Below, piece after piece: positions 824-34,040 of a DNA stretch of 53,651 bases. The notes under the pieces are model-generated. The model was not told where the DNA came from, made no database searches, and saw only the letters and a list, made by a program, of their open reading frames with translations. Positions within the stretch are counted from its first letter, which is position 1, and each line of letters begins with the position of its first letter. Both the position numbers and the translations under genes were made by a program. Location of the stretch: NCBI GenBank assembly GCA_016195615.1, contig JACPZF010000015.1, forward strand, positions 1-53,651, in the 5' to 3' direction. Origin of the DNA: Candidatus Gottesmanbacteria bacterium. Its GTDB lineage: Bacteria > Patescibacteriota > Microgenomatia > JACPZF01.

Positions 824-3472
824 TTATTGATAGTAGATACTGCCGGGATCTCTGACAAAAATACCAATTCGTTGTGCGTTGTCATCTCTAATTACCTGTT
901 GAGTTTTATTTATCCTTGTTTTGGTAAATGGAGTATTGGGAACTTTTTTTTGAAGAACAAAAGGTAGGGAACTTTTTCTGGCCAGTTCTATTTTTTCTCT
1001 AGTTACGTCAGTAATTGTTCCTCTGCCGCCCCAATCCAATTGGCCTAAAATCGGATCGGCGACGACTTTTAATATCCATTGCTGGGGATTTTGAAGGGCA
1101 ATTTCAATTTCTTGATCCACATAAGATTGTATTTCTCCATCATAATATAGTTCGGTGGCATAACCCTTTAAAGATAGGAGTGGTATAGTTTTTGCGAAAT
1201 TGGCATTTAGCATATTAATAAATTGGTCTGCTTTTTCTGAAGAAAAGCCATAAATTTTAATAAGGTAATTGCGGTAGTATTCTTGAAAGAAAGGTAGAGT
1301 GAAAATAGCTAAATCATTTTTTCCGTTAATGATTAAACCCGATGCGGGATCGTTAAAAATAAATAAATCCTTATTTTGGCGCCGGTAAATTGCTGTCGCA
1401 GTTTTTGCCATCCTTTCGGCTTGGTTTCTTGCGATATCTTTGATAGTTAAACCCTTATAGCGCGGGTTTGTTGATTTAACACCGACAATATCTGTTATGT
1501 ATAAAGCTCTAAGAAGATTATTTTCTAATATTTCTTCCGGAGAAACAGAAGGGTCCCGACGAAAATTATTAACAAGTGTTTCTAGATTGGTTCTTACCAT
1601 TGATGTCATTTGCTCTTCGTCTACGATTAAGATCTTATTAAGGTTTTTACCTAACAACTTGGCTGCCTGGCGCGGATTTTGCATGAGATTTAAATAATAA
1701 TTCATCGGGTCTTTATAAAAGTTTCCGAGGTATGCAAAATTATAGACAAAACCGTTTTCGATCACTCTAGCGTCTCTGTATTGTTCGGCGAGATCTTCCA
1801 TGGTGACGATTTTTACCTTAATTCCAAATTTTTCCAATTCGTAAGCAAATATTTTGGCATCCTTGATATATTCGCTCCATTCACGAGTAGTAAGGATAGT
1901 TAATCTTTTACGATTGGTAGAAGTGTTTTCAGGTAGGGCAACATTTTGCATGAAATTATTAAATTTACTGGCTAAATCCGAAACACAACCCTCGTAACCG
2001 GCAAATCCGACAAAGGAAATACCAATTGCTCCCGGAGAATCTTCCAACTCTGTTGCGATGTAGGAAACTTGCCCATCTTTTAATACTCTCGTAAAATCTC
2101 CGCGTTCAAAAACGACGGGCGATATAAGTGATGTTGGCAGGACTTCCAGATCTGGTACTGCTTGAGACTTTTTATTTAAAATAATGGCTTTGACACGCCT
2201 TTGTAAATCCGATATTTGATATCCGGTTAGGCCGAGCTTTTCTTTGATAAAAATAAGTTCTACGGGAGGGAAAATTAATTGTTGCAAAACCTGACGGGCT
2301 AAAAATAAGTTTTGGCTAAATTCCCGGAAAAAAGTTTCTTGTGTACAAAAGTACGGTGCTTCGGCAAAAAATTTCCATGGTAGTCCCGCACTTTTATCTC
2401 CCATTTCATCTGCTAACTCTTCGCTTTCGGGGGTCCGATAGAGAACTTCCTCAATACCGTATTTTCGAAGAGCCCATAATTGCCTGTTTTCAATATCTCC
2501 ATAAGTCCATTTACTAACGGTTAGTCCGGTTTCCACGGAGGACATTTTTTCGATACGATCAATTATTTGCGGAATAAGAGTTTCTTCGGATTTGCTCAAA
2601 GGATCAGAGGAAAAAAGCATAGCAGCAGAAAGCATATTGTTCTCTTTTAATATGGCAAACATCGCCGGTGTTAATGCTTTTTCGATAATTTGTCGATAAT
2701 TCTTTTGGGCAAGTAACGATATTTTATCTTCGTTTGTGATACCTTTTCTCAGATTGTTTCTGATCATCGCGTCGGCTTTATCAATAACAACTCGTTTCAG
2801 ATAAGCTAACTTTTTCAAATCTAAATCTGTTAAATTTGCTAAAGTGATTTGGTCGGTTTCTAAAGCTACGCTAGCAAATTCCTGAAGACTCTGATCAGAT
2901 TCTAATAATTTAATTAATGATTTCTTCATAAAGGGAGAAAGTGGTTTATTCAAATATTCTTCATATTTTTTCTTTCCTTTGGAAGTTTTAATTTCTCGTT
3001 TGGCCTGTTGTAAAAATTCATTTCCGTAAAGAGTTAGCGTAGCGTTTAGAGTCTGGTCGTAATTTGCTTGGTTGTTCCTGAGCTGGGCAAATTTTTGTTC
3101 AACTAACTCGTTTTCTAAGGAGATAATCCAGTCCGGTTTTTCTTTTAAGATTCGGGCTTTTCTTAAAGCAGCTTTTGCCCTTTCCATAGCTAAAAACATG
3201 ATTTTTTCCGATGGTTGATAATTTAAAAATGTTTCGGTGTTGTTTTGAAGATTACTAACGGTTTTTAATAAAGCGATTGAGCCTTCTTTCGGCCATTCTA
3301 TAGTTTTGGGTTCCATAAATTTTTTCGCAACCTTTTTTGTTCTGTCAAAAATCCTCATGGTTGGCGGAGGAGTAATTCCCAAGAAAGGCAGAAACAAATT
3401 CGCCTTACTTAAATTATCACAATTAGCGATTGACCAAAAAACCAATTCCAATCTGGCTTGACATGCCAGCAT
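824..3472 (-). CDS. large hypothetical protein (up to 882 aa; start uncertain)
   Basis: Longest ORF in this region, with no family recognised with certainty. The C-terminal third (..QQWILKVVADPILGQLDWGGRG..) is weakly reminiscent of ATP-grasp/glutathionylspermidine-synthase-like folds. An alternative ATG lies at 3358 (MRIFDR..). Confidence 0.6.
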   Translation of the reverse strand: MLACQARLELVFWSIANCDNLSKANLFLPFLGITPPPTMRIFDRTKKVAKKFMEPKTIEWPKEGSIALLKTVSNLQNNTETFLNYQPSEKIMFLAMERAKAALRKARILKEKPDWIISLENELVEQKFAQLRNNQANYDQTLNATLTLYGNEFLQQAKREIKTSKGKKKYEEYLNKPLSPFMKKSLIKLLESDQSLQEFASVALETDQITLANLTDLDLKKLAYLKRVVIDKADAMIRNNLRKGITNEDKISLLAQKNYRQIIEKALTPAMFAILKENNMLSAAMLFSSDPLSKSEETLIPQIIDRIEKMSSVETGLTVSKWTYGDIENRQLWALRKYGIEEVLYRTPESEELADEMGDKSAGLPWKFFAEAPYFCTQETFFREFSQNLFLARQVLQQLIFPPVELIFIKEKLGLTGYQISDLQRRVKAIILNKKSQAVPDLEVLPTSLISPVVFERGDFTRVLKDGQVSYIATELEDSPGAIGISFVGFAGYEGCVSDLASKFNNFMQNVALPENTSTNRKRLTILTTREWSEYIKDAKIFAYELEKFGIKVKIVTMEDLAEQYRDARVIENGFVYNFAYLGNFYKDPMNYYLNLMQNPRQAAKLLGKNLNKILIVDEEQMTSMVRTNLETLVNNFRRDPSVSPEEILENNLLRALYITDIVGVKSTNPRYKGLTIKDIARNQAERMAKTATAIYRRQNKDLFIFNDPASGLIINGKNDLAIFTLPFFQEYYRNYLIKIYGFSSEKADQFINMLNANFAKTIPLLSLKGYATELYYDGEIQSYVDQEIEIALQNPQQWILKVVADPILGQLDWGGRGTITDVTREKIELARKSSLPFVLQKKVPNTPFTKTRINKTQQVIRDDNAQRIGIFVRDPGSIYYQ

Positions 3473-3614
3473 CTCGGTAGAAGTTATTTGCGCCTCTCTC
3501 TGTTACTGTGGATATAGAAGCTGTAGTAATGAAATTACTTTCAACCACTATCGGTATTGCCGGTAACCCAGCATTTAAAAGAACCCTATTTCGAAATTCA
3601 TTTTCTATTGCCAT
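3423..3614 (-). CDS. small hypothetical ORF overlapping the 5' end of the 882-aa ORF
   Basis: 63-aa ORF with a purine-rich SD-like aaggggaa upstream of its ATG. It overlaps the next ORF by 50 nt in another frame, so it is either a coupled small gene or the true N-terminus separated by a frameshift. Confidence 0.25.
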   Translation of the reverse strand: MAIENEFRNRVLLNAGLPAIPIVVESNFITTASISTVTERGANNFYRDAGMSSQIGIGFLVNR

Positions 3615-3963: not shown

Positions 3964-4201
3964 TCATCCCCACAAATCTTGTGATTCTCCAAGTTTTTCA
4001 TCTCCAAATGCTCTTGCAGCGTCATGCGCATCATGCCACGAAGACTCCCCTTCTAATCCGATAGCATCTGCACCAGCGGCATCAGCTGGGGTTTCATGAG
4101 CTACTTTAGCAAGGGCCTCAGCACTATAACGATTACTCACTCCCCCCAATGTCTTCAATTTTTTCGATTATTGCCCTCATCCATTCTGGTGTCATAGTCA
4201 T
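3964..4201 (-). pseudogene. small hypothetical gene split by a G6 tract (22-aa and 64-aa frames)
   Basis: ATG at 4201 sits 9 nt after an extended -10 (TGgTATACT, rc of 4211-4219). It reads MTMTPEWMRAIIEKIEDIGGSE-stop. One G fewer in the G6 run (4142-4147) would join it to the 64-aa track ORF (3964-4158), whose only start is TTG. Confidence 0.35.
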
Positions 4202-4252
4202 AGTAATAGAAGTATACCACACTTGGGTTCTAGATACAAATGCTGTACTTTG

Positions 4253-4645
4253 TCAAAGCGAACTTGTCAGCTTTTTGAAATCTTTATCAAAGCTTAAAAT
4301 CTCAGCATTTCTACTTACTGCCTGACAAAAAAGAAAAGCATCAACGAGATCGATATTCTCAAGCTGATAAATATCTAAGGCCTCTAAAAGGTTTTCCCTT
4401 TCTTCCACTTCAAAATAGGGAACAGAAACGAGTGTTTTTAGATGATGATAAACTTCTAACCTGGGAAGTTCATAATACTTTTCCAAGGCGAAGCAAATTT
4501 CAAAAATGACAATCTGGCACACAACAATGACGATTTCTTTCTTCCTTGCGCCTATAAAATACTTTTCGGCCTGACTCTTTTGTCTGGTGTTTTCCGGAAG
4601 AATAAAGCGTAAAAAAATGTTGGTATCGGCGAAATAAACCTTCAT
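4253..4645 (-). CDS. vapC: PIN-domain toxin (VapC-like)
   Basis: N-terminal MKVYFADTNIFLRF and C-terminal ILSFDKDF are typical PIN acidic motifs. It overlaps the upstream antitoxin gene by 4 nt. Confidence 0.8.
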   Translation of the reverse strand: MKVYFADTNIFLRFILPENTRQKSQAEKYFIGARKKEIVIVVCQIVIFEICFALEKYYELPRLEVYHHLKTLVSVPYFEVEERENLLEALDIYQLENIDLVDAFLFCQAVSRNAEILSFDKDFKKLTSSL

Positions 4646-4887
4646 ATTAGATGACGGGTAGCAAGATGTTTTTCAAATTGCTCTCTGATTTTTTTGGCGG
4701 AGAATTTTTTCTTAGTCTTAATAACTCCTTTAAGAGATAAAAAATCAGCAACCGGTTCAACAATAATTCTTCCGGCATCTCCGGCCCTAACGATTGCCTT
4801 TTGCACGTTGCCGAAGTTGTACTGATTAAGCAGTTTTTTAGGAATGCTTATTTGTCCTTGAGAAGTAATCGATACTAAATAATTCAT
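4642..4887 (-). CDS. vapB: AbrB/SpoVT-type antitoxin (VapB-like)
   Basis: ITSQGQISIPKKL is an AbrB/MazE looped-hinge-helix signature. The gene is 81 aa and translationally coupled to the PIN gene. Confidence 0.75.
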   Translation of the reverse strand: MNYLVSITSQGQISIPKKLLNQYNFGNVQKAIVRAGDAGRIIVEPVADFLSLKGVIKTKKKFSAKKIREQFEKHLATRHLI

Positions 4888-4896
4888 AGTACATTA

Positions 4897-4925
4897 AAAA
4901 TAGCAGTTTGCATTACTTTTGTCAA
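4897..4925 (-). promoter_or_regulatory. sigma70-like promoter of the vapBC pair
   Basis: Minus strand TTGACA (rc 4920-4925), a 17-nt spacer and TATTTT (rc 4897-4902), 9 nt before the ATG at 4887. Confidence 0.5.
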
Positions 4926-4931
4926 GTTCCA

Positions 4932-5657
4932 TTATTTTGCTTTTGTGGGCGTTGGGGTTAGAGATGGAGTAGGAGATGGTGCTTCGGCAAGAATTAAAAT
5001 GCGGCCGGCGGGAAGCAGTTCTTTTCCTTCTTTGGTGACGGTGAGAAAACCATAAACATAAACCAATTGGCCGGCGCTGAATTTGGAGAAGCCGCTTCTG
5101 GTTAATCCTTTTGCTTGATTATAGAGAGAAGTTCTGGTGGTTTGATCAATATCCACGAGATAGTCTTTACTGGAGCTGGAAACCGTGATTTGAAAGTTTT
5201 TTTTGTCGACGTTTTTGATTTTGCCTATTAGGCCCAAGGGAAGCTTCATGGCAACCACCGCTTTGGCTGTCAGAGTATTAGTTGTTGCGTTAAAAGTGCC
5301 CCAAATATAGACCGTTTGACCCAACTTCAAATCGTCGAGCTGAATTTTAGTTTTTTGGAAATCAGAATCAATTTGAGAAAGAGCAGTATTGTCATCTAGA
5401 CTAGCGGTAACTTCATTAGCGCCGGCGCTAAAAATAATTTTTTGGTCAGAGAGAGTTTTAATTTCACCTTTAAAAACCCTCTGGGAGAGGACGTTTAGCT
5501 CGGCGACGCGGGAAGCGAGTTTTTCTTTAAGCTCTTTTATTTTAAGATTAGACGAAGGTGTGGGCGTCATTTCAGCCGCAAAAATACCAGATGTTATGGC
5601 GACAAAAAAAATAAAGATCGTTGATAGTAAAATCGTTTTATTTGGTTTCATAAACAA
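4932..5657 (-). CDS. secreted/membrane-anchored hypothetical protein
   Basis: N-terminal hydrophobic segment (ILLSTIFIFFVAITSGIFA) and a Pro/Thr/Ser-rich C-terminus. No family recognised. Confidence 0.6.
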   Translation of the reverse strand: MFMKPNKTILLSTIFIFFVAITSGIFAAEMTPTPSSNLKIKELKEKLASRVAELNVLSQRVFKGEIKTLSDQKIIFSAGANEVTASLDDNTALSQIDSDFQKTKIQLDDLKLGQTVYIWGTFNATTNTLTAKAVVAMKLPLGLIGKIKNVDKKNFQITVSSSSKDYLVDIDQTTRTSLYNQAKGLTRSGFSKFSAGQLVYVYGFLTVTKEGKELLPAGRILILAEAPSPTPSLTPTPTKAK

Positions 5658-6879: not shown

Positions 6880-8217
6880 ATGCCAGAGCTTAAAGTTCCC
6901 CCGCATTCTGAAGACGCCGAGATGTCGGTTCTGGGCGCGATATTAATTGACAAAGACGCCATCGTCGAAGTGGCCGGGTTTTTACGGCCGGAACATTTTT
7001 ATAGCGACAATCATCGTCAAATCTACGAGGCGATACTTTCTCTTTATGAAAAGAGAACGCCCATTGACCTTGTCACCTTAAGCGAGGCCTTAAAAAAGAA
7101 AAAGGCCCTTTCTGATGTTGGCGGCGTGGCATATTTGACGACGCTGGCCAACTCGGTGCCGACCGCGGGCAACATCGAACACTACGGCAATATTGTTAAA
7201 AATCATTTTACCAAACGCAAATTGATCGGGGCGGCTGGCAAGATTTCACAGGATGCATTTGACGAAGCGGCGGATGTTAAAGAAGTTCTCGATAAAACAG
7301 AGCAAGCGATTTTTTCCATTTCTCAGGAACATCTAACCCAAGGCTTTATTCCTTTACGAGAGGCCTTAGTGGAAAGTTTCGATCGTCTCGACGAGCTGCA
7401 AAAAAAATCAGGGAAGCTTCGCGGTTTGGCCACGGGATTTAAAGATATTGATAATAAACTGGCGGGATTGCAGCCTTCCAACCTAATTATTCTTGCCTCA
7501 AGGCCGGGTATGGGTAAAACTGCGATGGCGGTAAACATAGCTCACTTTGTCGCCGTCCACGAGAAAAAACCAGTCGGCATTTTTTCTTTGGAGATGAGCA
7601 AAGAAGAGTTAGTTGACAGGCTTTTAGTCCAGCAGGCCGAAATCGACGCCTGGCGCTTAAAAACCGGGAAACTGGAAGAGGCGGATTTTGAGAAACTGCA
7701 AGACGCCATGGGTATTTTAGGCGACGCGCCGATTTTTATTGACGACACGCCGGGTCTTTCGATTATGGAAATTAGAACGAAAGCCAGACGACTTCAAGTC
7801 GAGCATAATCTATCGCTTTTAATTGTTGACTATTTGCAGCTGGCTTTTGCCGGAAAGAACATGGAGAATCGGGTTCAGGAAGTTTCCTACATTTCCCAAA
7901 GCCTAAAAAATCTTGCCCGGGAACTGAAAATTCCGGTTTTAGCTGTATCTCAGCTGTCTCGCGCCGTTGAGGCGAGAGGTACTAAAATTCCCCAGCTGGC
8001 GGATCTGCGCGAATCAGGCGGGATTGAACAGGATGCGGACGTGGTGATGTTTCTCTATCGCGCCGAAGAAGAGGGTGAAAAAATTTCCGAGCAGATACCG
8101 ATTAAGCTTTTAATTGCTAAACATCGAAACGGCCCCACGGGAGAAATAGATTTGATTTTTAGGGGAGATAGAATTAAATTTTATGGGATGGAGAAAAGGA
8201 GGGAGACAAAGAATTAA
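6880..8217 (+). CDS. dnaB: replicative DNA helicase DnaB
   Basis: N-terminal PPHSEDAEMSVLGAIL, Walker A SRPGMGKTA, IVDYLQL and the SQLSRAVE and RESGGIEQDAD motifs. Full length at 445 aa with no intein. Confidence 0.95.
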   Translation: MPELKVPPHSEDAEMSVLGAILIDKDAIVEVAGFLRPEHFYSDNHRQIYEAILSLYEKRTPIDLVTLSEALKKKKALSDVGGVAYLTTLANSVPTAGNIEHYGNIVKNHFTKRKLIGAAGKISQDAFDEAADVKEVLDKTEQAIFSISQEHLTQGFIPLREALVESFDRLDELQKKSGKLRGLATGFKDIDNKLAGLQPSNLIILASRPGMGKTAMAVNIAHFVAVHEKKPVGIFSLEMSKEELVDRLLVQQAEIDAWRLKTGKLEEADFEKLQDAMGILGDAPIFIDDTPGLSIMEIRTKARRLQVEHNLSLLIVDYLQLAFAGKNMENRVQEVSYISQSLKNLARELKIPVLAVSQLSRAVEARGTKIPQLADLRESGGIEQDADVVMFLYRAEEEGEKISEQIPIKLLIAKHRNGPTGEIDLIFRGDRIKFYGMEKRRETKN

Positions 8218-20295: not shown

Positions 20296-21027
20296 ATGTC
20301 CGGTCATTCCAAGTGGTCGCAAATCAAAAGGCAAAAAGGTCTAGCCGACGCGAAACGAGGGCAAATTTTTACTAAACTTGGCAACGCGTTAACAATTGCT
20401 GTCAAAGAGGGTGGGGGAATTGTTGATCCAGAGAGCAACTTCAAACTTCGTCTGGTCATCGAAATTGCCAAACAGGCCAACATGCCTAAGGAAAATATTC
20501 AAAGGGCCCTAGACCGGGCTTTGGGCAAGGGAGAAGAAGGCGAACTGGAGGAAGTTTTTTACGAAGGTTTCGGACCCCAAAATATCAGCGTCATGGTGGA
20601 AGCCGTCACGGATAACCGTTTGCGTACCCAAGCCGGAGTTAAAAATTTCTTTGATAAATCAGGGGGTAGGCTGGGAAGCTTTGGTTCGGTTTCCTACCTT
20701 TTTCAAAAAAGCGGGCTGATTATAGCGGCTAAGGAGGGCAAAACACCAGAAGAAGTTTTTCTCCTCGCGGCCGATTTGGGCGCAAAAGAGGTGGAGGAGG
20801 GGGAAGAGATTGAAATTTATACCAAGCCTGGTGAACTTCATAATATCAAAAAAGCCCTCGAAGACAAAGGAATTAAAGTTTTATCGGCAGAATTAATCAT
20901 GAAACCAACAACTTTAATAGAAATAACAAATAGAGAACATGCTGATAAGATCATTTCCTTTCTGGCAGGCTTGGAGGATCTGGATGATGTTCAAAAAGTG
21001 TACTCAAATGTGGATATTCTAGTATAG
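20296..21027 (+). CDS. yebC: YebC/PmpR-family transcriptional regulator
   Basis: MSGHSKWSQIKRQKG..AKRGQIFTKL.. is the canonical N-terminus. Length is 243 aa. Confidence 0.9.
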   Translation: MSGHSKWSQIKRQKGLADAKRGQIFTKLGNALTIAVKEGGGIVDPESNFKLRLVIEIAKQANMPKENIQRALDRALGKGEEGELEEVFYEGFGPQNISVMVEAVTDNRLRTQAGVKNFFDKSGGRLGSFGSVSYLFQKSGLIIAAKEGKTPEEVFLLAADLGAKEVEEGEEIEIYTKPGELHNIKKALEDKGIKVLSAELIMKPTTLIEITNREHADKIISFLAGLEDLDDVQKVYSNVDILV

Positions 21028-21866: not shown

Positions 21867-22295
21867 TCGAGTCTGACTCGATAAAATTTTTCCGCCAGAC
21901 TAAAAGTAGAGAAGAGGGAAGCTCCAAAAGGCCATAATTGTATCCTATAGTTGATGATACAGTTTGATATATGTCTTGGCCTATAGTTTTCACGAAAATA
22001 TCGTAATTTTTCACGAAAATAAAAATTATCAATGCCAAGGCCTAAGTGCTTCTTCCTTAAATAAAGAGACATAACTCCACGAAGTAGTGTGTAGAGCTTC
22101 AAAAATGAAGGATTAGACTGTCTTTATGCTCCAAAAACATGCTATGCACGTAGCAACATAAAAAACCCGAAAAGATGTCGGTGGATAAATCAAGATACTT
22201 GGCCTTGAAAATAGCGGTTTAGGGCGTATTAATAATCTAAATTAAAGGCACCAGAGACTAACGCGAAAGGAGTGTGATATCTGATGATATTTGTA

Positions 22296-22351
22296 TTTTA
22301 ATACTTTAATACTTTAATTCTTTAATTCGTTAATTCGTTAATTCGTTAATT
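22296..22351. repeat. seven tandem 8-nt units (YYTTAATW)
   Basis: ttttaata ctttaata ctttaatt ctttaatt cgttaatt cgttaatt cgttaatt, in the long non-coding stretch upstream of the recombinase gene. Confidence 0.8.
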
Positions 22352-22687
22352 CTCATACGTGCTGAGGTAGTGGACATCATATCCTCTTATAAAATAACCC
22401 CTTTAGATTTTTGGGAGACAAACCCTTGACAGGGAACGGTAAGTCTGATAAAGTTATCATGTCGCACAAGAATACTTTTGCGACATGTATGGTGGCCGGT
22501 TTCGAGGGAAGTGATGAAATAAAATTTCTAATTACTAATTTCTAATTTCTAAAAAATTTGTGTAAAATATTTAATATGACCAATTTCCTAGCAATTTCTC
22601 TGCTTTTTAGCCATTCCTCCCAAAAGCCGATTTTAGCCTCAAGCGGCTTCTCTAGGCCTTTTTTACTTCCCTGCCACAAGGAGACAT

Positions 22688-24883
22688 ATGGATATTTCTG
22701 ATGGCATCAGGCGCTTTTTGGAATACTTAGAGATCGAACGCAACTGTTCAACTTTGACCATTCGCGACTATGAGCACTACCTAAACACCTTTGACGACTG
22801 GACGAGGGCAAATAGCCAGGTAGAAAAGGTCGAAGACATTGATGACGAACACATACGTCAATTTCGGCTGTTTCTGGCTCGTAAAGCTGACAAGCACGGC
22901 CGTTTTCTGAAACGAATTACGCAAAATTATTACGTCATTGCCTTAAGAGCTTTTTTAAGATATTTAATCAAGCAAGACGTCAAAACATTAGCACCGGAAA
23001 AAATTGATTTACCCAAAACCGAAAGCCGGTCGTTAAAATTTTTAAACGAAGAACAGCTTCATCGTTTACTTACGGCAATTGATATTTCCACCAACTGGGG
23101 TTTAAGAGACAGGACAATGGTCGAAATGCTGTTTTCAACGGGCCTGCGGGTTTCAGAACTGTGTAAGCTTAACCGAAACCAGATAAATTTAGATTCTAGG
23201 GAAATTGGGGTTATTGGTAAAGGTCAAAGGGCCCGCGTGGTATTTTTGTCTGATCAGGCGGTGTTTTGGCTAAATAAGTACTTGGCAAAACGAACCGATG
23301 ATTTCTTCCCTTTATTTATAAGGTATAGTCAAAAAGTTGACGAGACTCCCCATGGCGAGAAAATGAGGTTGACGGCCCGAAGCGTGCAAAGAATGCTGGA
23401 AAAATATGTTTTGAAATCCCGCTTGCCAGTTAAGGCAACGCCGCATACATTGAGACATTGTTTAGAACCAAATACCAGAGTGTTTACCAAAGAGGTTGGT
23501 ATGGTATCTGCCAATGATTTATTTTTTTCTGAAAGTGCAAAAATCGAAGGTGTTAATTTAAAAAACGGAAATCAACAATCAGCAGAAATCACCAAAAAAT
23601 TAAGCCATATATCAGATTTGTATTCTGTTTGGGCCGATGGATACGAGATCGTATGTTCCGGAAAGCACTGGCTTTTTACAGTTGGATTGAACGGGCCCGA
23701 GGAAATATTGGTAAATAATTTAAAGTTAGGAGATTATATTTTAGGTGTTAACAAGGTGAATATTGTTGGTAAAACGTTTGTTGACATAGATATGGCAAGG
23801 TTAATTGGATATATTCTCGGCGACGGTGTTATCAGTGAAAAAAGACGCGGCGTTTTTATATTTGATAAAGATATAGATAACTTAAAATTTTATCAAAAGA
23901 TAATTCTCGATAAGCTGCAGGGTTTTATAACAGTTGCAAAAGCTAAAATCAGCAATAGTTATGTGCTTACTTATTATTCATTACCGTTTGTAAAATTTCT
24001 TATATCGCTTGGTTTGGATAAAAAAGCAAAAGAAAAACGGGTACCGTCCAAAATAGTTAATTCTTCAAATCAAGAAATCGCCTCTTTTTTATCAGGTTTT
24101 TATGATGCAGAGGGCAATTCAACTGGTTCTCCTAGATTTTTTTCATCCTCTAAACATCTTCTCAAAGATGTCCAGATGATGTTATTACGGTTAGGGATAG
24201 ATGCTCATTTAATGGAGCGAAAGAGAACTGTCACACTTCCGTCCGGCAGGCCCTATATCCATTTATTCTATACGCTACAAGTCCTGTCTTTTAATGATCA
24301 AAAGAGATTTATTAAACTAATTCCTACATTAAAAATAAAAACTTTAAAGGTATTTGGTAAGCGCGATTTTGATAAATTACCGGTAAACTTGCTATTAAAA
24401 GAAATTTACGAAGATTTGGAAAAAAACGGGAAAAAAGGTTTTCGTTATGCCTTGCAAATAAATGAAGGGATAAAATCTCCCAGATATTTTAAAGAAATGA
24501 CTCCCCTACGCTCAACCGTTGGAAAATTTATCCGCCAGATAGAGAAATTTAAGTTTAATTCAAAAACTTTTGAAAATTTAAAAATGTTTTATAAATCTCA
24601 AAATATGAAATGGTTAGAGGTGAAAAAGATAATAAGGTGGCCATCGCCACGAAACAGCGTGTTTGATTTCACTGTTTCTGAAATTAGTAATTTAATTACA
24701 GACGGAATTGTCAGTCACAATTCGTTTGCGACTGATCTTTTAATGAAAGGCGCTGATTTACGCAGCGTCCAAGAAATGCTAGGACATAAAAACGTTGGCA
24801 CCACCCAAATCTATACCCACGTCACCAATCCGCAGTTAAAAGAGGTTCATAAGAGATTTCACAGCGGGAACAAAAACAGATAA
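22688..24883 (+). CDS. xerC: XerC/XerD-type tyrosine recombinase interrupted by an intein
   Basis: SD aaggag. N-terminal SAM-like domain ([19 protein letters not shown]), catalytic Arg in TGLRVSEL, then HTLRH|intein|[34 protein letters not shown]. The exteins total 310 aa. Confidence 0.9.
23459..24721 (+). mobile_element. 421-aa intein with LAGLIDADG homing endonuclease
   Basis: Starts with Cys (CLEPNTRVF) and has block B GKHWLFT. LAGLIDADG motifs are [11 protein letters not shown] and [11 protein letters not shown]. It ends ..GIVSHN, followed by the +1 Ser of the C-extein. Confidence 0.85.
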
Positions 24884-26617: not shown

Positions 26618-27401
26618 ATCCGATTCCGGATCGGATTATATTAGCGATCCGGTAATTATTCGATAATTAAATGTTTTATTTTAGCTAAATCTCGTTGGTA
26701 ATCTTTTCTGGCCATTACAAATTTTTCGTAATCTTTTATCGAGCGAAATTGATCTAAAATTATTGATGGATAAACAAAGTCTAATTTTTCTAAACCAATA
26801 TAGTGTTTGTACGACGAATATGAATAATCTTCAGGTTTATCCACCAAATATGCGGTCACAGGATTTAAATGAATATATCTTGACAAGTGTAAAATTTGTT
26901 CGTCGGTTTCAACATGAACCGCTTCAAAATTTGGTTCAAAAAGTGGACCAGAAGTTTCGTGTTTAATATTAAAATAATGGGCATAGCTATTGGATATTTT
27001 ATGTAGAAACTTATAAATGCCAAAATCTTCAGTTTGTTGCAGAGTGAAATGAAAATGCGTTGGCATTATACAAAAATTTATTATTTTAACTAAACAGTAA
27101 CTAAAGTTTAATAAGTACTTGCTTCTGCATTTACGATAATTTGAAAACTTCGTCGCTGGTTTACTTTGAAGATAATATCTTGAAGATTCTAAAAAAAGAC
27201 TGGTTTCCTTTTCCCGATTAAATACAGGACGCTTATAGATCGATCGGTTAAAAACGTGATAGTATTCACCGGTAACAAATTGTATTTTTCTCAGACTCAC
27301 ATATCTAACATAACTCGATAAATATGATTCGTCAATATGGCAATATGTAAGTTTTAGAGGAAATACCCGGTTCGCGAAGCTATTCCGATCCCGGATCGGA
27401 A
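26618..27401 (-). mobile_element. IS200/IS605-family element (Y1 transposase flanked by matching subterminal hairpins)
   Basis: Hairpins ATCCGAT-tccgg-ATCGGAT (26618-26636) and TTCCGAT-cccgg-ATCGGAA (27383-27401) bracket the transposase ORF. The 784-nt span fits IS200-type size. Confidence 0.6.
26656..27300 (-). CDS. tnpA: IS200-like / REP-associated (RAYT-like) HUH tyrosine transposase
   Basis: YYHVFNRS.., the HUH motif MPTHFHF and the catalytic-Tyr region LSRYIHLNPV. Probable GTG start at 27300. The track N-terminal extension to 27483 runs through the left-end hairpin. Confidence 0.7.
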   Translation of the reverse strand: MSLRKIQFVTGEYYHVFNRSIYKRPVFNREKETSLFLESSRYYLQSKPATKFSNYRKCRSKYLLNFSYCLVKIINFCIMPTHFHFTLQQTEDFGIYKFLHKISNSYAHYFNIKHETSGPLFEPNFEAVHVETDEQILHLSRYIHLNPVTAYLVDKPEDYSYSSYKHYIGLEKLDFVYPSIILDQFRSIKDYEKFVMARKDYQRDLAKIKHLIIE

Positions 27402-27415
27402 GAAGATACTTAATT

Positions 27416-27718
27416 TTAATTATCAACAAATAATCTTGCATGTACTGGAAAATCAATTCTTGCCTGTTCCTTAAGTTGATCAACTAGATCCCAATTTCTC
27501 TCATTGGCAGCTGCTTTCATTTTGGTTCTCCATCCAGCCCAAGGATTATCATCGGTATAATTATCTATAAGTGCTTGACCATGACCATCGTCTTTATATT
27601 GTTTTCTTAATGATTTCACGAGTCTATTTCTTGCTTCTGGTCCCCCCGGATATCCAATTTCGGAAGCGTTTAAGGCCAAAATTGGCCTGTATTTTTCTTT
27701 AGCTAATTTTTCCGACAT
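27416..27718 (-). CDS. hypothetical 100-aa protein
   Basis: ORF directly downstream of gyrA. Its last codons abut or overlap the IS end, so the C-terminus may be altered by the insertion. Confidence 0.4.
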   Translation of the reverse strand: MSEKLAKEKYRPILALNASEIGYPGGPEARNRLVKSLRKQYKDDGHGQALIDNYTDDNPWAGWRTKMKAAANERNWDLVDQLKEQARIDFPVHARLFVDN

Positions 27719-27748: not shown

Positions 27749-30142
27749 TTACTCTTTCTCCAAACACGCAACGGCGGCGACGAAGTCGGACTTATCCGAT
27801 AACCTCATGAGGATCACACCCTGGGTAGCTCTACCCAGCCGGGGAACAGAATCGATTGGGACTTTAATCGTCTGTTTGCCCGATTTAGTTGCTAAAACAA
27901 GCTGACCAATCGTTTCTGACACCATTTGCGCGGTGACAATCGGGCCGGTTTTGGCAGTGACATTAGCCACTTTTACGCCCTGTCCGCCCCGTCTTTGCTT
28001 GGGAAAGGAAGTAACCGGAGTTCTCTTCCCTATTCCTCTTTCCGATACCACCAGAATATCGCGGAAAAATTTTAATCTTTTATCGCTCGGGTGTTCAATT
28101 TTTTGGGGTACACTTTCCATACCAACCACCAAATCATCCTTTTTCATTCGTACGCCGCGGACGCCGATGGTATCTCTACCGGTGGATCTTACTTCTTTTT
28201 CGGAAAATCGGATGGATTTGCCTTGATGGGTAAAAAGCATGATATCTTCATCGCCGGAGGTTATTTTTGCCCAAACCAGCTCATCGCCGGTTTCTAACTT
28301 TATTGCCGTTAGGCCATTTTTTCGGATATTCTCATATTGACTAAGAGTGGTCTTTTTAACCGTTCCCTGTCTTGTAGTCAGAAAAATACACTCACTATGG
28401 GTTTTATCGGCTTCACTGCTATAGGTTAGTAAGGAATTTACTTTTTCATCCTGGGCGATATTAATAAGATTTACCACCGCCTGTCCCTTACTAACTCTTG
28501 AGGACTCTGGGAGATCCCAAACTCTAAGTTGGTAAACTTTTCCTTTATTGGTAAAGAATAAAATATTATCATGGGTGTTGGCACTGACCAGATGATCGAT
28601 TTCATCTTCCTCCTTTGTAATCATTCCGGTGACTCCTTTTCCTCCCCTGGCTTGGGCGCGGTAGGAGGAGGGCGAAAGGCGTTTGACATAACCAGTTTTG
28701 GTTAAGGTTATAATCATTTTTTCATTCGGGATTAAGTCCTCATCGGAAAACTCGCCGACTTTGCTTTTAATAACTTTAGTTTTTCTATCGTCGCCGTATT
28801 TTTCTTTAAGCTGGAGGATTTCCTCTTTTATTACTTTTAAAACTTTTTCCCCGTGCGAAAGCAGATCCTCAAGATAGGCAATCGTTTCCATCACCATCGC
28901 CAGTTCGTCTTCGATTTTTTGCCGCTCCAGAGCCGCCAGCCTTCTTAGCTGCATATCCAAAATGGCAATCGCTTGGATTTCAGTCAGACCAAACTTGGTC
29001 ATTAAGTTCTTTTTGGCTTCGTCGGCGTCTTGGGATTTTTTAATCGTTTGAATAACCTCGTCGATGTGGTCAACCGCTATTTTTAAACCCTCCAAAATAT
29101 GAGCTCGAGCCTTGGCCTGTTTGAGTTCGAACTCGCTTCTTTTAGTAACCACTCTTTGGCGGTGCCTGATGTATTCTTCCAGGATGGTTTTGAGAGTTAA
29201 GGTTTGCGGCGTTCCATCGACGAGAGCTACCATGTTTACGGGAAAGACGCTTTGCAGACTGGTATGCTTATATAAATTATTTAATACCTGTTTGGGCCGA
29301 GCATCTCTTTTAAGTTCAATTACAACTCTGATGCCGTGACGGTCGGATTCATCGCGAAGATCAGATATGCCTTCTAACTTTTTATCCTTAACTAAATCGG
29401 CAATTCTTTCGACCATCTGGGCCTTATTCACCTGATAAGGAAGCTCGGTAATAATAATGGCGGATTTGTTGCCACCCGCTATGTCTTCAATTTCAGCTCT
29501 ACCCCTCATGACCACTTTGCCCTTACCCGTCGAATAGGCATTGGCGATTTCAGCTTTATCAAAAATAATGCCGGCCGTGGGAAAATCCGGGCCGTGGACA
29601 TACTCCATGAGTTCCTCGGTGGTAACAGAAGATAGATTTTTGTTATCTACCTTCAATTCGTGTTCAACTTTATCGATTATGAACACAATAGCATCAATAA
29701 GTTCTGCCAGATTATGGGGCGGAATCTTAGTTGCCATGCCCACGGCGATACCTTCGGAACCTATGAGAAGCAAATTAGGAAGCTTGGCCGGCAGATAGAC
29801 TGGTTCTTTTAAGGTGTTATCAAAATTAGGAGTAAAATCAACCGTTTCTTTTTCCAGATCGAATAACATTTCCGCGGCAATTAACGCGTCATAAACCGGA
29901 ATATCGCCATGGGGGTGGTATTTACCTAAAACTTCACCGACAATTTTAGCGCTTTTGGAAAATTTAGAAGTATGATGCAGGCCCATTTCGTGCATGGCAT
30001 AGAGAATGCGTCTGTGAACTGGTTTTAAACCGTCCTTAACGTCTGGCAAAGCCCGAGCCACAATAACGCTCATCGCATAGTCCAAATAGGACTTTTGCAT
30101 TTCTTCGGTAATTTCTACTGGTAGAAGTTTGCCAATGTTCAT
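27749..30142 (-). CDS. gyrA: DNA gyrase subunit A (ORF lacks the catalytic-tyrosine block)
   Basis: [60 protein letters not shown] and C-terminal beta-pinwheel repeats are present. The segment VRMAQ..GNFGS..AAMRYTE is absent (see findings). Confidence 0.85.
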
Positions 30143-30178: not shown

Positions 30179-32023
30179 TCATTTTCCAATGACGGCGATG
30201 ACAAAAGGCGCGATTAAAAGAGCAACGATTTGCACGATTTTCATCATCGGATTAAGAGCCGGACCGGCAGTATCTTTTAACGGGTCGCCAACGGTATCAC
30301 CGACGACTGCTGCTTTGTGAGTATCGCTGCCTTTGCCGCCATAGTTGCCATCCTCGATGTATTTTTTGGCGTTATCCCAGGCTCCTCCTGCCGTACACAT
30401 ATACAAAGCCAGAGCTAATCCTGAAACCACGACGCCGGCGAGGAATCCTCCCAAGCTTTCCGCACCTAAAAATCCGACCAAAACTGGGGCGCCGACGACA
30501 ATTATAGCTGGAATAATAAGTTCTCTTTGGGCGGCTGCGGTAACGATTGCGACCGCTTTAGAATAATCAGGCAGAGTTTTGCCTTCCATAATACCTTTAA
30601 TTTCTTTAAATTGACGTCTCACTTCTTGGACTACTTCAAAAGCAGCCTTGCCCACGGAGCCAATAAGCCTCGAGCCAAATAAATATGGTAGACCAGTTCC
30701 AATTAAAAGGCCGGCAAAAACTTTAGGATTGGCGATGTCAATTGATTTTAAACCCGTGACTTCAAAATAAGTGGCAAAGAGCGAACTAGCAGCCACGGCG
30801 GCGCTACCAACAGCAAATCCTTTGGTTAACGCCTTCGTAGTATTGCCGACAGCGTCCAGGCTTTCCGTAACCGCTGCCGCCTTGCCAGGGACGTTGGCCA
30901 TTTGAACCATGCCTTGGGCGTTATCCGAAATCGGACCGAAAGTATCTAGAGACATAATAATACCTGTCGTTGCCAGCATACCCATACCGGCAAGGGAAAT
31001 TCCATAAAAACCCAAAAACCAATAACCGACAAAGATCGTCGCGGTAACAATTAGGATATTAAAAAAGGTTGCTTCCATGCCAATAGCAATGCCGCTAATG
31101 ATCGTAGTTCCCGCCCCGGTTTTAGACGCGGTGGCAATTTGCATCACGGGCTTTTCTCCGGGTCCGGTGTAATACTTGGTAAGAAATAATATTACCAGCA
31201 TGGAAATAATACCAGCCACAGCGGCAAACCCGGCTCGTGGTTCGTTTAAAAGAAAAATCGCCAGTGCCATAAAAATTACCATCGCCGAAATGGCCGAAAT
31301 AATAAAGCCGCGAATTAAAGGTAAAAGAGGATTCTCTTTTTCGTTTTTTGCTTTAACAAAAAAGGTTCCGAGTATGGAAGTTACAATAGCTGCAGCCCGT
31401 GCTAAAAGGGGAAAAACTACGCCTTTTAAGCCAAACATCGCGCCTCCTAGGATCATGGAAGCTACAACCCGCATAAAAAGGGTTAATAATGCCGCCCCAA
31501 AACCATAACCGACCAAAACGTCAGTCGCGTGCTTCGCGACTAGATCAGCCCCTTGCGCAATATAGGAAAAATAAGCCCACATATAAATAAGGGAAACGCC
31601 GAAAAGTCCAAGACCGACCACAAGCATGCCGTTTACGGTTCCGGCGCCAAAGGCAATTTTAAGAGCAGGATTTAAACCATATTGAGCGTTATTGGCAGTT
31701 CGCACATTGGCGCGGACAGCAATCCACATGCCAAAAAAGCCGATCAAAGCACTACCTACTCCTCCGAGGACAAAAGCAACTGCTGTACCAGTTCCAAGGG
31801 TAAAATTTATTAAAACGCTTAAAACCAGCATGATAGGAATCACGACTCGAAATTGTTTTTTAATATAAGTCATCGCGCCCTCGCGGATTGCTTTGGCAAT
31901 CGCTTGCAATTTCGGACTGCCCTCTTCTTCTTTAAGTACTTGTCTTGTTAAATAATAACCATAGCCGATGGCTAAAAGAGCTGTTAATGGAGCTACAAAT
32001 AGTGCTATAAGTTGAATATCCAT
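30179..32023 (-). CDS. hppA: membrane-bound proton/sodium-translocating pyrophosphatase (ORF lacks the central catalytic acidic-motif block)
   Basis: Polytopic. The conserved C-terminal motifs GPISDNAQG, DAVGNTTKA, GGAWDNAKKY and GDTVGDPLKDT are present. The GGG.YTKAADVGADLVGK..DNVGDNVGD block is absent (see findings). Confidence 0.8.
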   Translation of the reverse strand: MDIQLIALFVAPLTALLAIGYGYYLTRQVLKEEEGSPKLQAIAKAIREGAMTYIKKQFRVVIPIMLVLSVLINFTLGTGTAVAFVLGGVGSALIGFFGMWIAVRANVRTANNAQYGLNPALKIAFGAGTVNGMLVVGLGLFGVSLIYMWAYFSYIAQGADLVAKHATDVLVGYGFGAALLTLFMRVVASMILGGAMFGLKGVVFPLLARAAAIVTSILGTFFVKAKNEKENPLLPLIRGFIISAISAMVIFMALAIFLLNEPRAGFAAVAGIISMLVILFLTKYYTGPGEKPVMQIATASKTGAGTTIISGIAIGMEATFFNILIVTATIFVGYWFLGFYGISLAGMGMLATTGIIMSLDTFGPISDNAQGMVQMANVPGKAAAVTESLDAVGNTTKALTKGFAVGSAAVAASSLFATYFEVTGLKSIDIANPKVFAGLLIGTGLPYLFGSRLIGSVGKAAFEVVQEVRRQFKEIKGIMEGKTLPDYSKAVAIVTAAAQRELIIPAIIVVGAPVLVGFLGAESLGGFLAGVVVSGLALALYMCTAGGAWDNAKKYIEDGNYGGKGSDTHKAAVVGDTVGDPLKDTAGPALNPMMKIVQIVALLIAPFVIAVIGK

Positions 32024-32032
32024 ATATCCTTT

Positions 32033-34040
<2,008 letters not shown>

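Follow-up and report, generated by a model that had tools for sequence, protein, structure and literature searches.

A predicted class-1 intein with a nested LAGLIDADG endonuclease splits the active site of a Xer-like tyrosine recombinase

Introduction

The usual hosts of inteins are ATP-binding enzymes of DNA replication and repair, and the ATP-binding P-loop is the niche in which inteins are usually found. The HxxRH/S box (a slash marks an insertion point throughout) is among the most conserved motifs of the tyrosine recombinase superfamily. A stretch of DNA from a Candidatus Gottesmanbacteria bacterium (contig JACPZF010000015.1 of assembly GCA_016195615.1; its full 53,651 nucleotides are referred to here as the window) raises the question of whether a working, mobile intein can reside in such a box. 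The gene of a Xer-type tyrosine recombinase in this window is interrupted within HTLRH/SFATDLL by 421 codons, which an earlier note, made from the sequence alone, had taken for a full-size LAGLIDADG intein in a host outside the classical list. We consider it likely that the element is a mobile class-1 intein of standard type, able to splice and nested in the sole Xer-type gene seen in the window. That Xer is not a classical host agrees with full-text literature searches, which found no paper on an intein in Xer or another tyrosine recombinase. Integrases and tyrosine recombinases are not mentioned in the main text of the main prokaryotic intein survey (Novikova et al., 2016), and no Xer intein is described in a paper on insertions in rRNA genes of bacteria of the candidate phyla radiation (CPR) (PMC11270868).

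Results

The insert separates catalytic residues of a Xer-like recombinase

The gene is organised as follows, in coordinates of the window.

22688..24883, + strand: Xer-intein precursor open reading frame (ORF), a single unbroken frame of 731 amino acids
22688..23458, + strand: N-extein, residues 1-257, comprising the SAM-like N-domain and the start of the catalytic domain up to H253-T-L-R256-H257 (Pfam Phage_int_SAM_1 and Phage_integrase; alignment to XerD 1a0p)
23459..24721, + strand: full-size class-1 intein of 421 residues, Cys1 to His420-Asn421 (Pfam, AlphaFold2, Foldseek)
24722..24883, + strand: C-extein, 53 residues and stop codon, with Ser+1 (SFATDLL), the LGH histidine and the IYTHV tyrosine nucleophile (XerD alignment)

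It can be seen that HTLRH (residues 253-257) is followed directly by Cys1 (residue 258, from nucleotide 23459), and that the insert ends ...GIVSHN, with its His-Asn pair at residues 677-678 (last nucleotide 24721) and Ser+1 at residue 679. The position and the 421-residue length that the earlier note had given for the element are exact, as is its length of 310 residues for the exteins, joined here in silico. The fused, intein-free form of the site would read GTTAAGGCAACGCCGCATACATTGAGACAT/TCGTTTGCGACTGATCTTTTAATGAAAGGC in the window's DNA.

The identification of the host as a Xer-type recombinase also holds. The in silico spliced protein gives one continuous match to Phage_integrase (PF00589, 142 bits), along with a match to the SAM-like N-domain (PF02899, 49.7 bits), and the catalytic R-K-H-R-H-Y set is present. 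Its motifs GLRVSEL, GKG, HTLRH, LGH and IYTHV align to Escherichia coli XerD (1a0p) and also to XerA (4a8e). HTLRH/S of the window protein falls on HVLRH-A of XerD, in which HVLRH is the His-x-x-Arg (Arg-II) box; as LGH and IYTHV lie downstream of the insert, the active site is split one residue after Arg-II. The spliced protein scores below every NCBIfam equivalog cut-off (XerC, 251.2 against 335; XerD, 246 against 329.6; XerA_Arch, 217.7 against 220), and we therefore describe the host as 'Xer-like' and assign no subfamily. No second Xer was found when the whole window was searched with custom hidden Markov models (HMMs).

The insert has the anatomy and predicted fold of a class-1 intein

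The following features were located within the insert; conservation refers to an alignment of 111 full-length homologues, described below.

23459..23482, + strand: block A, CLEPNTRV, with Cys1 as first nucleophile (Cys in 111 of 111)
23657..23668, + strand: block B, S67-G-K-H70 ([S/T]xxH), with Cys66 directly before it (H70 invariant)
23786..24319, + strand: LAGLIDADG endonuclease core, intein residues about 110-287 (approximate boundaries, from the secondary structure of the model)
23801..23836, + strand: LAGLIDADG motif 1, residues 115-126, with catalytic Asp122 (in 109 of 111)
24086..24121, + strand: LAGLIDADG motif 2, residues 210-221, with catalytic Glu218 (D-A-E columns at least 99% conserved, E invariant)
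24386..24595, + strand: extra five-helix subdomain, residues about 310-379, between nuclease core and block F (approximate, from AlphaFold2 helices at model positions 322-391, offset 12)
24659..24679, + strand: block F, VFDFTVS (D403 and F404 invariant)
24689..24721, + strand: block G, ending His420-Asn421 (both invariant)

The insert scores above the Pfam cut-offs for Intein_splicing (47.7 bits; cut-off 35.8) and LAGLIDADG_3 (59.9 bits; cut-off 22.5), and TIGR01443 intein_Cterm passes its cut-off of 15.6 both with the intein alone (18.2) and with the whole protein (19.8). The two LAGLIDADG motifs are about 95 residues apart and each closes with a catalytic acidic residue. The description as a full-size, two-motif intein stands. 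The class-1 residues are all present, namely Cys1, SxxH in block B, and His-Asn followed by Ser+1. Among the hallmarks listed in the earlier note, Cys1, both nuclease motifs, the terminal HN and the +1 Ser were recovered; the T..H form of block B was not, since the window has Ser at this position. Of the 111 homologues, all with H70, 81 have Ser and 30 have Thr at residue 67. The intein contains just two cysteines, C1 (23459-23461) and C66 (23654-23656), the second of them shared with 95 of the homologues (86%), and from their positions in the sequence a redox pair controlling splicing is possible.

The intein was modelled together with short flanks in AlphaFold2 (mean predicted local distance difference test score 87, predicted template modelling score 0.88). 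The model comprises a beta-rich lobe at the N-terminus, a nuclease core of two-fold alpha/beta architecture, the five-helix subdomain and a C-terminal beta lobe. The core is predicted to consist of two pseudo-symmetric alpha-beta-beta-alpha-beta-beta-alpha halves, and the five-helix subdomain is presumed from the model to extend DNA binding. The model was compared with the PDB using Foldseek, and the following solved inteins were matched (TM, template modelling score).

TliVMA intein, 7qss (top match): E 2.5e-25, TM 0.69/0.71
PI-PfuI, 1dq3: E 5.8e-22
PhoVMA intein, 7qst: E 6.5e-19
PI-TkoII, 2cw7: E 1.5e-14
PI-SceI, several entries: E 5.6e-12 and weaker

I-DmoI matched the nuclease core alone (target TM about 0.7), and in a sequence search of the PDB the only detectable matches were TliVMA entries (7qsu, 7qss) and PI-PfuI. 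The model thus has the Hint fold, with a Foldseek probability of 1.0 to solved inteins.

Like TliVMA, PhoVMA and the ribonucleotide reductase (RNR) intein PI-PfuI (TM 0.57-0.71, E 2.5e-25 to 6.5e-19), the Xer intein has the class-1 residues and is predicted to combine a split Hint domain with a double-motif LAGLIDADG core and a further helical or DNA-binding region. Unlike them, it resides in a recombinase, mainly of CPR bacteria, whereas their hosts are the V-ATPase and RNR of hyperthermophilic archaea, and identity to them is only 16-20%. PI-SceI of yeast VMA1 (Foldseek probability 1.0, TM about 0.48) would resemble it in presumed splicing followed by homing at an empty allele, but is about 10% identical, has its own DNA-recognition region within the Hint domain and has a eukaryotic host.

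The allele forms its own family and is conserved at full length

A search of protein clusters with the 731-residue query listed 120 matches, 111 of them at least 700 residues long. There are thus at least 111 clusters of this size with the same four-domain Pfam content, 43-59% identical to the window protein, and their inteins are 405-430 residues long, the nearest sampled one being 59% identical to that of the window. Source names include Woesebacteria ('GW2011' assemblies), Roizmanbacteria and Parcubacteria, and some copies carry the automatic JGI label 'site-specific recombinase XerD/intein/homing endonuclease'. All 111 share the junction H-x-x-R-H/C...H-N/S-[FY]-A-T.

On careful alignment the conserved block residues were retained: C1, H70, H420, N421 and S+1 are invariant in the 111 homologues, Asp122 is found in all but two, and the motif-2 DAE is invariant or nearly so. 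The C-extein is the most conserved part, with a mean column identity of 0.80 against 0.62 in the N-extein and 0.58 in the intein. In the closest locus pairs the intein has a dN/dS of 0.03-0.14, like the N-extein; these values are rough and to be read qualitatively, and at well below 1 they place the intein under purifying selection.

The intein was also used alone in an exhaustive HMMER search of 1.84 billion representatives, which gave 27 matches at E <= 1e-30. The best 28 matches outside multi-intein proteins (one at E 5.7e-25) all have Phage_integrase hosts according to Pfam, and the next tier, at E about 1e-20 and about 30% identity, lies in RadA, RNR, MCM, terminase, DnaB and other hosts. 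Because an all-integrase top tier is followed by a gap, we conclude that the Xer intein is an allele family of its own. For 16 of these 28 50%-identity representatives both junctions could be located; their inteins span 404-427 residues and in most of them both nuclease motifs are recognisable. No mini-inteins were seen among these 16 or the 111 full-length homologues.

Scanning a single genome for each GTDB species yielded 83 relatives, among which 57 copies are complete at the common junction, two of these with Cys at +1. About 65 GTDB species carry the intein at the identical site, mostly Patescibacteria/CPR together with archaeal XerA genes. Record titles include Woese-, Roizman-, Nealson-, Nomura-, Yanofsky-, Kaiser-, Lipton- and Taylorbacteria, as well as Peregrinibacteria, Kazan, Saccharibacteria and Paceibacteria, and several contigs are titled as archaea. 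Several contigs with this CPR-type gene (L003-L005, L011, L017, L019, L036, L049 and L078; protein P0058) are titled 'uncultured Gammaproteobacteria', 'Pseudomonadales' or 'Nevskiaceae'; they are probably mislabelled metagenome-assembled genomes of Patescibacteria.

Individual copies depart from the common pattern. In L025, L054 and P0251 the downstream junction reads ...SHN/CFATDLL, and the mature recombinase would carry HxxRH-C. The Xer copy at 4001-5318 of L034 is out of frame, with several stops in the last third of the intein, through either decay of the gene or a fault in the assembly. An intein-bearing Xer-like gene lies at 3302-5461 of L083, a 94-kb contig classed as viral in IMG/VR, beside a KaiC/RecA-like ATPase and an HTH_36/DnaD-like protein; the neighbouring genes that were checked gave no diagnostic phage matches. 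The contig may belong to a mobile element that carries the intein, or to a CPR genome and be wrongly classed. L084, an 89-kb viral contig, encodes a related intein (about 4001-5089, 32% identity), one of the nearest non-Xer relatives, in a RecA-like ATPase with the junctions ...HMYD/CLGADT and ...SHN/SRIEF. An unrelated LAGLIDADG intein follows the P-loop GPNGSGKS of an SMC-like protein on L074 (about 1944-2498), a contig titled archaeal.

The intein also occurs in archaeal XerA and in divergent integrases

The intein occupies the same site in genes taken as archaeal XerA, in L064 (3341-5437), L067, L016, L022, L029, L032 and L044, all but L064 with record titles from DPANN or Thermoproteota. 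In six loci the C-extein is of archaeal style (S[FM]ATHLLE) and the N-extein is shorter. The spliced exteins of L064 and L022 score 271.7 and 237 with the XerA_Arch equivalog, above its cut-off of 220, and on the 114-kb contig L064 the gene adjoins an archaeal-type glutamate-tRNA ligase (TIGR00463, 501 bits; cut-off 402). Our claim of archaeal hosts rests on these scores and, for L064, on this neighbour; neighbours on the DPANN-titled L022 and L044 (RadC, HAD hydrolase) are compatible with either domain.

The homologous HxxRH/S site is also occupied in short divergent tyrosine recombinases, namely L061 (about 2237-3541)/P0256, P0259 and P0264. Their exteins are about 190 residues long and lack the SAM-like N-domain. 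The C-extein opens with SFAINWIK, SYAVHRVQ or SFAVQFIQ, the junction in L061/P0256 being HTYRH/SFAINW.

Distribution and composition suggest mobility

Intein-less alleles, from which the earlier note expected confirmation of the homing site, are plentiful. We found 120 intein-free Xer proteins with 64-78% extein identity, colinear across the junction, in which the residue equivalent to +1 is Ser in 111 and Thr in seven. The exteins closest to those of the window belong to four intein-free proteins (P0121-P0124; 310 residues, 76-78% identity), and the names on the nearest exteins are Curtissbacteria, Levybacteria and Microgenomates, from which the organism most likely belongs to the Microgenomates group of the CPR. 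The DNA of the empty site is unbroken in the genes for P0123 and P0122 (contigs L001 and L002), which read ...CAT/AGT... and ...CAT/ACA...; the L001 site is ...CTGCGGCAT/AGTTTTGCC....

Inteins and exteins do not share their nearest relatives. Among intein-bearing hosts, P0060, P0063 and P0064 come nearest to the window in their exteins (65-67%), but their inteins are just 38-39% identical to that of the window, and the closest inteins (P0002, P0003 and P0007; 58-59%) are found in exteins 58% identical to those of the window. In a neighbour-joining (NJ) tree of exteins the window gene is embedded among intein-free alleles, and parsimony requires at least nine gains or losses, a count that is indicative only. 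Loci L029 and L044 have inteins that are 75% identical in exteins that are 53% and 61% identical (N-extein 53%). Archaeal XerA hosts form one extein clade, and their inteins are scattered among bacterial ones in the NJ tree. Archaeal and bacterial inteins have a median identity of 41% (maximum 49%) and bacterial inteins one of 39% among themselves; for exteins the corresponding medians are 34% and 53%.

At third codon positions the window intein has a GC content of 0.29, compared with 0.46 in its exteins and a range of 0.32-0.49 in 17 further long ORFs from the window. The intein is richer in AT than its own extein in 51 of 55 loci, with a mean gap of 7.4 GC points, or 9.6 at third codon positions. 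The flanking DNA at the insertion site has the consensus CCnCAtannnTnaGnCAt/TCnTTtGCnACnGAt in 56 copies. The target PHTLRH/SFATDLL is highly conserved in tyrosine recombinases, which is plausibly how one intein lineage reaches Xer, XerA and other integrases. We conclude that the patchy, phylogeny-discordant and cross-domain distribution and the AT-rich composition of the intein point to horizontal homing.

Surroundings of the gene in the window

The gene sits among the following housekeeping genes.

6880..8217: dnaB, without intein families
20296..21027: YebC, a housekeeping neighbour, without intein
27749..30142, - strand: gyrA, without intein families
30179..32023, - strand: H+-pyrophosphatase, without intein
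32073..34037, - strand: gyrB, without intein families

The earlier note had called dnaB and gyrB intein-free, and no intein families were found in either, nor in gyrA. A custom intein HMM run against the six-frame translation recovered one copy only, and thus no other related intein in the window.

A gene-poor spacer of 820 bp (21867-22687) lies upstream of xer. It contains a palindrome with 13-nt arms, CATGTCGCACAAG-AATA-CTTTTGCGACATG (22458-22487), that is unique in the window, and two tandem arrays, of the 8-bp unit TTTAATTC (seven copies, 22297-22353) and of the 7-bp unit AATTTCT (four copies, 22523-22552). The palindrome is absent from 87 related loci, the spacer, which was examined for a dif-like site or an RNA element, has no Rfam match, and no dif site was identified. 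About 1.8 kb downstream of xer, an ORF on the minus strand (26656-27483) gives a weak match of 29 bits to IS200-like Y1 transposases, and at the left end of the window an 882-residue ORF (824-3472, minus strand) has no Pfam match.

Discussion

From the observed anatomy, predicted fold, conservation and distribution we infer the splicing chemistry, the cleavage of DNA and the meeting of alleles in one cell, by analogy with the established chemistry of intein and LAGLIDADG families. Translation would give an 84-kDa precursor in which HTLRH, with the Arg-II and His residues, is parted by 421 residues from the LGH histidine and the IYTHV tyrosine. Splicing would begin with an N-S acyl shift at Cys1, followed by trans-esterification onto Ser+1 and cyclisation of Asn421 aided by His420, and a final O-N shift would restore HTLRH-SFATDLL and yield a 310-residue active Xer. 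The freed intein of 421 residues would be a monomeric, double-motif LAGLIDADG endonuclease that should cut intein-free xer at the DNA for PHTLRH/SFATDLL, and repair from an intein-bearing copy would then copy the intein into the empty allele. The element is very probably a genuine, splicing-competent intein, and an active nuclease with ongoing or recent homing is fairly likely.

Several observations weigh against a splicing intein that spreads by homing. The N-terminal intein model TIGR01445 gave 14.7, short of its cut-off of 24.5. The NJ trees carry no support values, the samples with and without the intein came from different searches, and dS was saturated in all pairs. The low GC content of the intein could partly reflect a composition rich in Lys, Asn and Ile, although third codon positions shift likewise. 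With the nearest sampled intein at 59% identity, no recent transfer has been caught. Finally, a simple homing cycle of invasion, decay and loss accounts less well for the lasting invariance of the nuclease site and the lack of degenerate or mini forms, which leave room for a role that benefits the host.

Such a role is at the heart of the best-surviving alternative, a domesticated or regulatory intein that is retained because conditional splicing (responsive to redox state, temperature, DNA or substrate) gates active Xer, with homing secondary or extinct. The whole intein is conserved as strongly as the N-extein, neither the 111 clusters nor the measurable 50%-identity representatives include degenerate or mini forms, and the only cysteines are C1 and C66, the latter beside block B. 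The enzyme whose active site is interrupted acts just once in each cell cycle, and there are precedents for conditional splicing (PMC5238726; PMC6195587; PMC11409957), with RadA and DnaB inteins as the analogy. However, a pure regulator would have no need of the nuclease Asp and Glu, which are invariant or nearly so, most close Xer orthologues are intein-free, and the incongruent trees and AT-rich composition suggest ongoing mobility. The cysteine pair, as read from the sequence, is at most a candidate for a condition-sensing feature. We regard this alternative as unlikely; the kept nuclease residues and the abundance of intein-free orthologues speak for mobility as the main driving force. A related proposal, in which the intein is a conserved post-translational switch on the chromosome-dimer resolvase of ultra-small CPR bacteria and some archaea, with splicing possibly gated by a Cys1-Cys66 redox pair or DNA while the nuclease keeps it spreading between the two domains, strikes us as rather improbable; if true, it would explain the full-length invariance across dozens of candidate phyla.

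A further potential explanation that would not need to invoke continued homing is a single early entry in Patescibacteria, followed by vertical descent and many precise losses, the nuclease no longer driving spread. It is supported by the extein NJ tree, in which many intein-bearing hosts fall together in one large block, by the positive correlation of pairwise intein and extein identities (Pearson 0.71), and by the distance of the window's intein from its nearest relative. Nevertheless, the window extein is nested among intein-free alleles and its intein is closest to inteins of more distant exteins. Vertical descent would also leave unexplained the archaeal XerA and short divergent integrase hosts, the L029/L044 pair and the retained nuclease residues, and we find it decidedly doubtful. 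That the insertion is dead, with xer a pseudogene or a fusion protein of other function, is highly improbable, for although splicing is predicted from sequence only and the related locus L034 is frameshifted inside its intein, 731 codons are in frame, the splicing residues are invariant across 111 homologues and the exteins are constrained (C-extein column identity 0.80, low dN/dS). A bacterial intein-like domain, a fusion to a free-standing homing endonuclease and an assembly chimera were all rejected because of the canonical blocks, the continuous frame and an identical junction in more than 100 independent assemblies.

A splicing, homing intein in Xer can be compared with two better known systems. 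As in the conditional inteins of RadA, DnaB and RecA, the insertion is in a catalytic motif of an enzyme of DNA metabolism and the host would be inactive before splicing, and the inteins of RadA, RNR, MCM and DnaB are among its nearest non-Xer relatives in sequence. The difference is that the Xer host is a tyrosine site-specific recombinase without a P-loop, and that conditional splicing is known for theirs. In CPR bacteria, intervening sequences in rRNA genes, which are removed at the RNA level, encode LAGLIDADG homing endonucleases, most of them with a single domain (PMC11270868). These elements share the organism group and nuclease superfamily with the Xer element and show that CPR genomes tolerate and spread homing elements, whereas the Xer element has two motifs and would be removed at the protein level.

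What is new here is the host class and the insertion site; a class-1 intein with a nested double-motif LAGLIDADG nuclease is, as far as sequence and model indicate, of a known type with an ordinary mechanism. The possibility raised earlier that the site was already catalogued is borne out only in part: no paper describing it was found, but the JGI pipeline labels some copies correctly. With that label, and with the allele widespread in public assemblies since the 'GW2011' series, its existence is less of a surprise. The NCBIfam matches obtained here include 'intein-containing' exception models for GyrA, RtcB, Tes and Rv2578c and none for Xer. Proteins of about 730 residues annotated as 'XerC/XerD' or 'hypothetical' deserve an intein-containing label.

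With this finding, tyrosine site-specific recombinases join the known hosts of inteins. An allele that extends over Patescibacteria, archaeal XerA and divergent integrases is a natural system for the study of homing across phyla and domains in shared habitats, and it could supply a new LAGLIDADG specificity as well as a recombinase naturally gated by an intein. The Xer intein could also reveal why a full nuclease persists for so long in some inteins.

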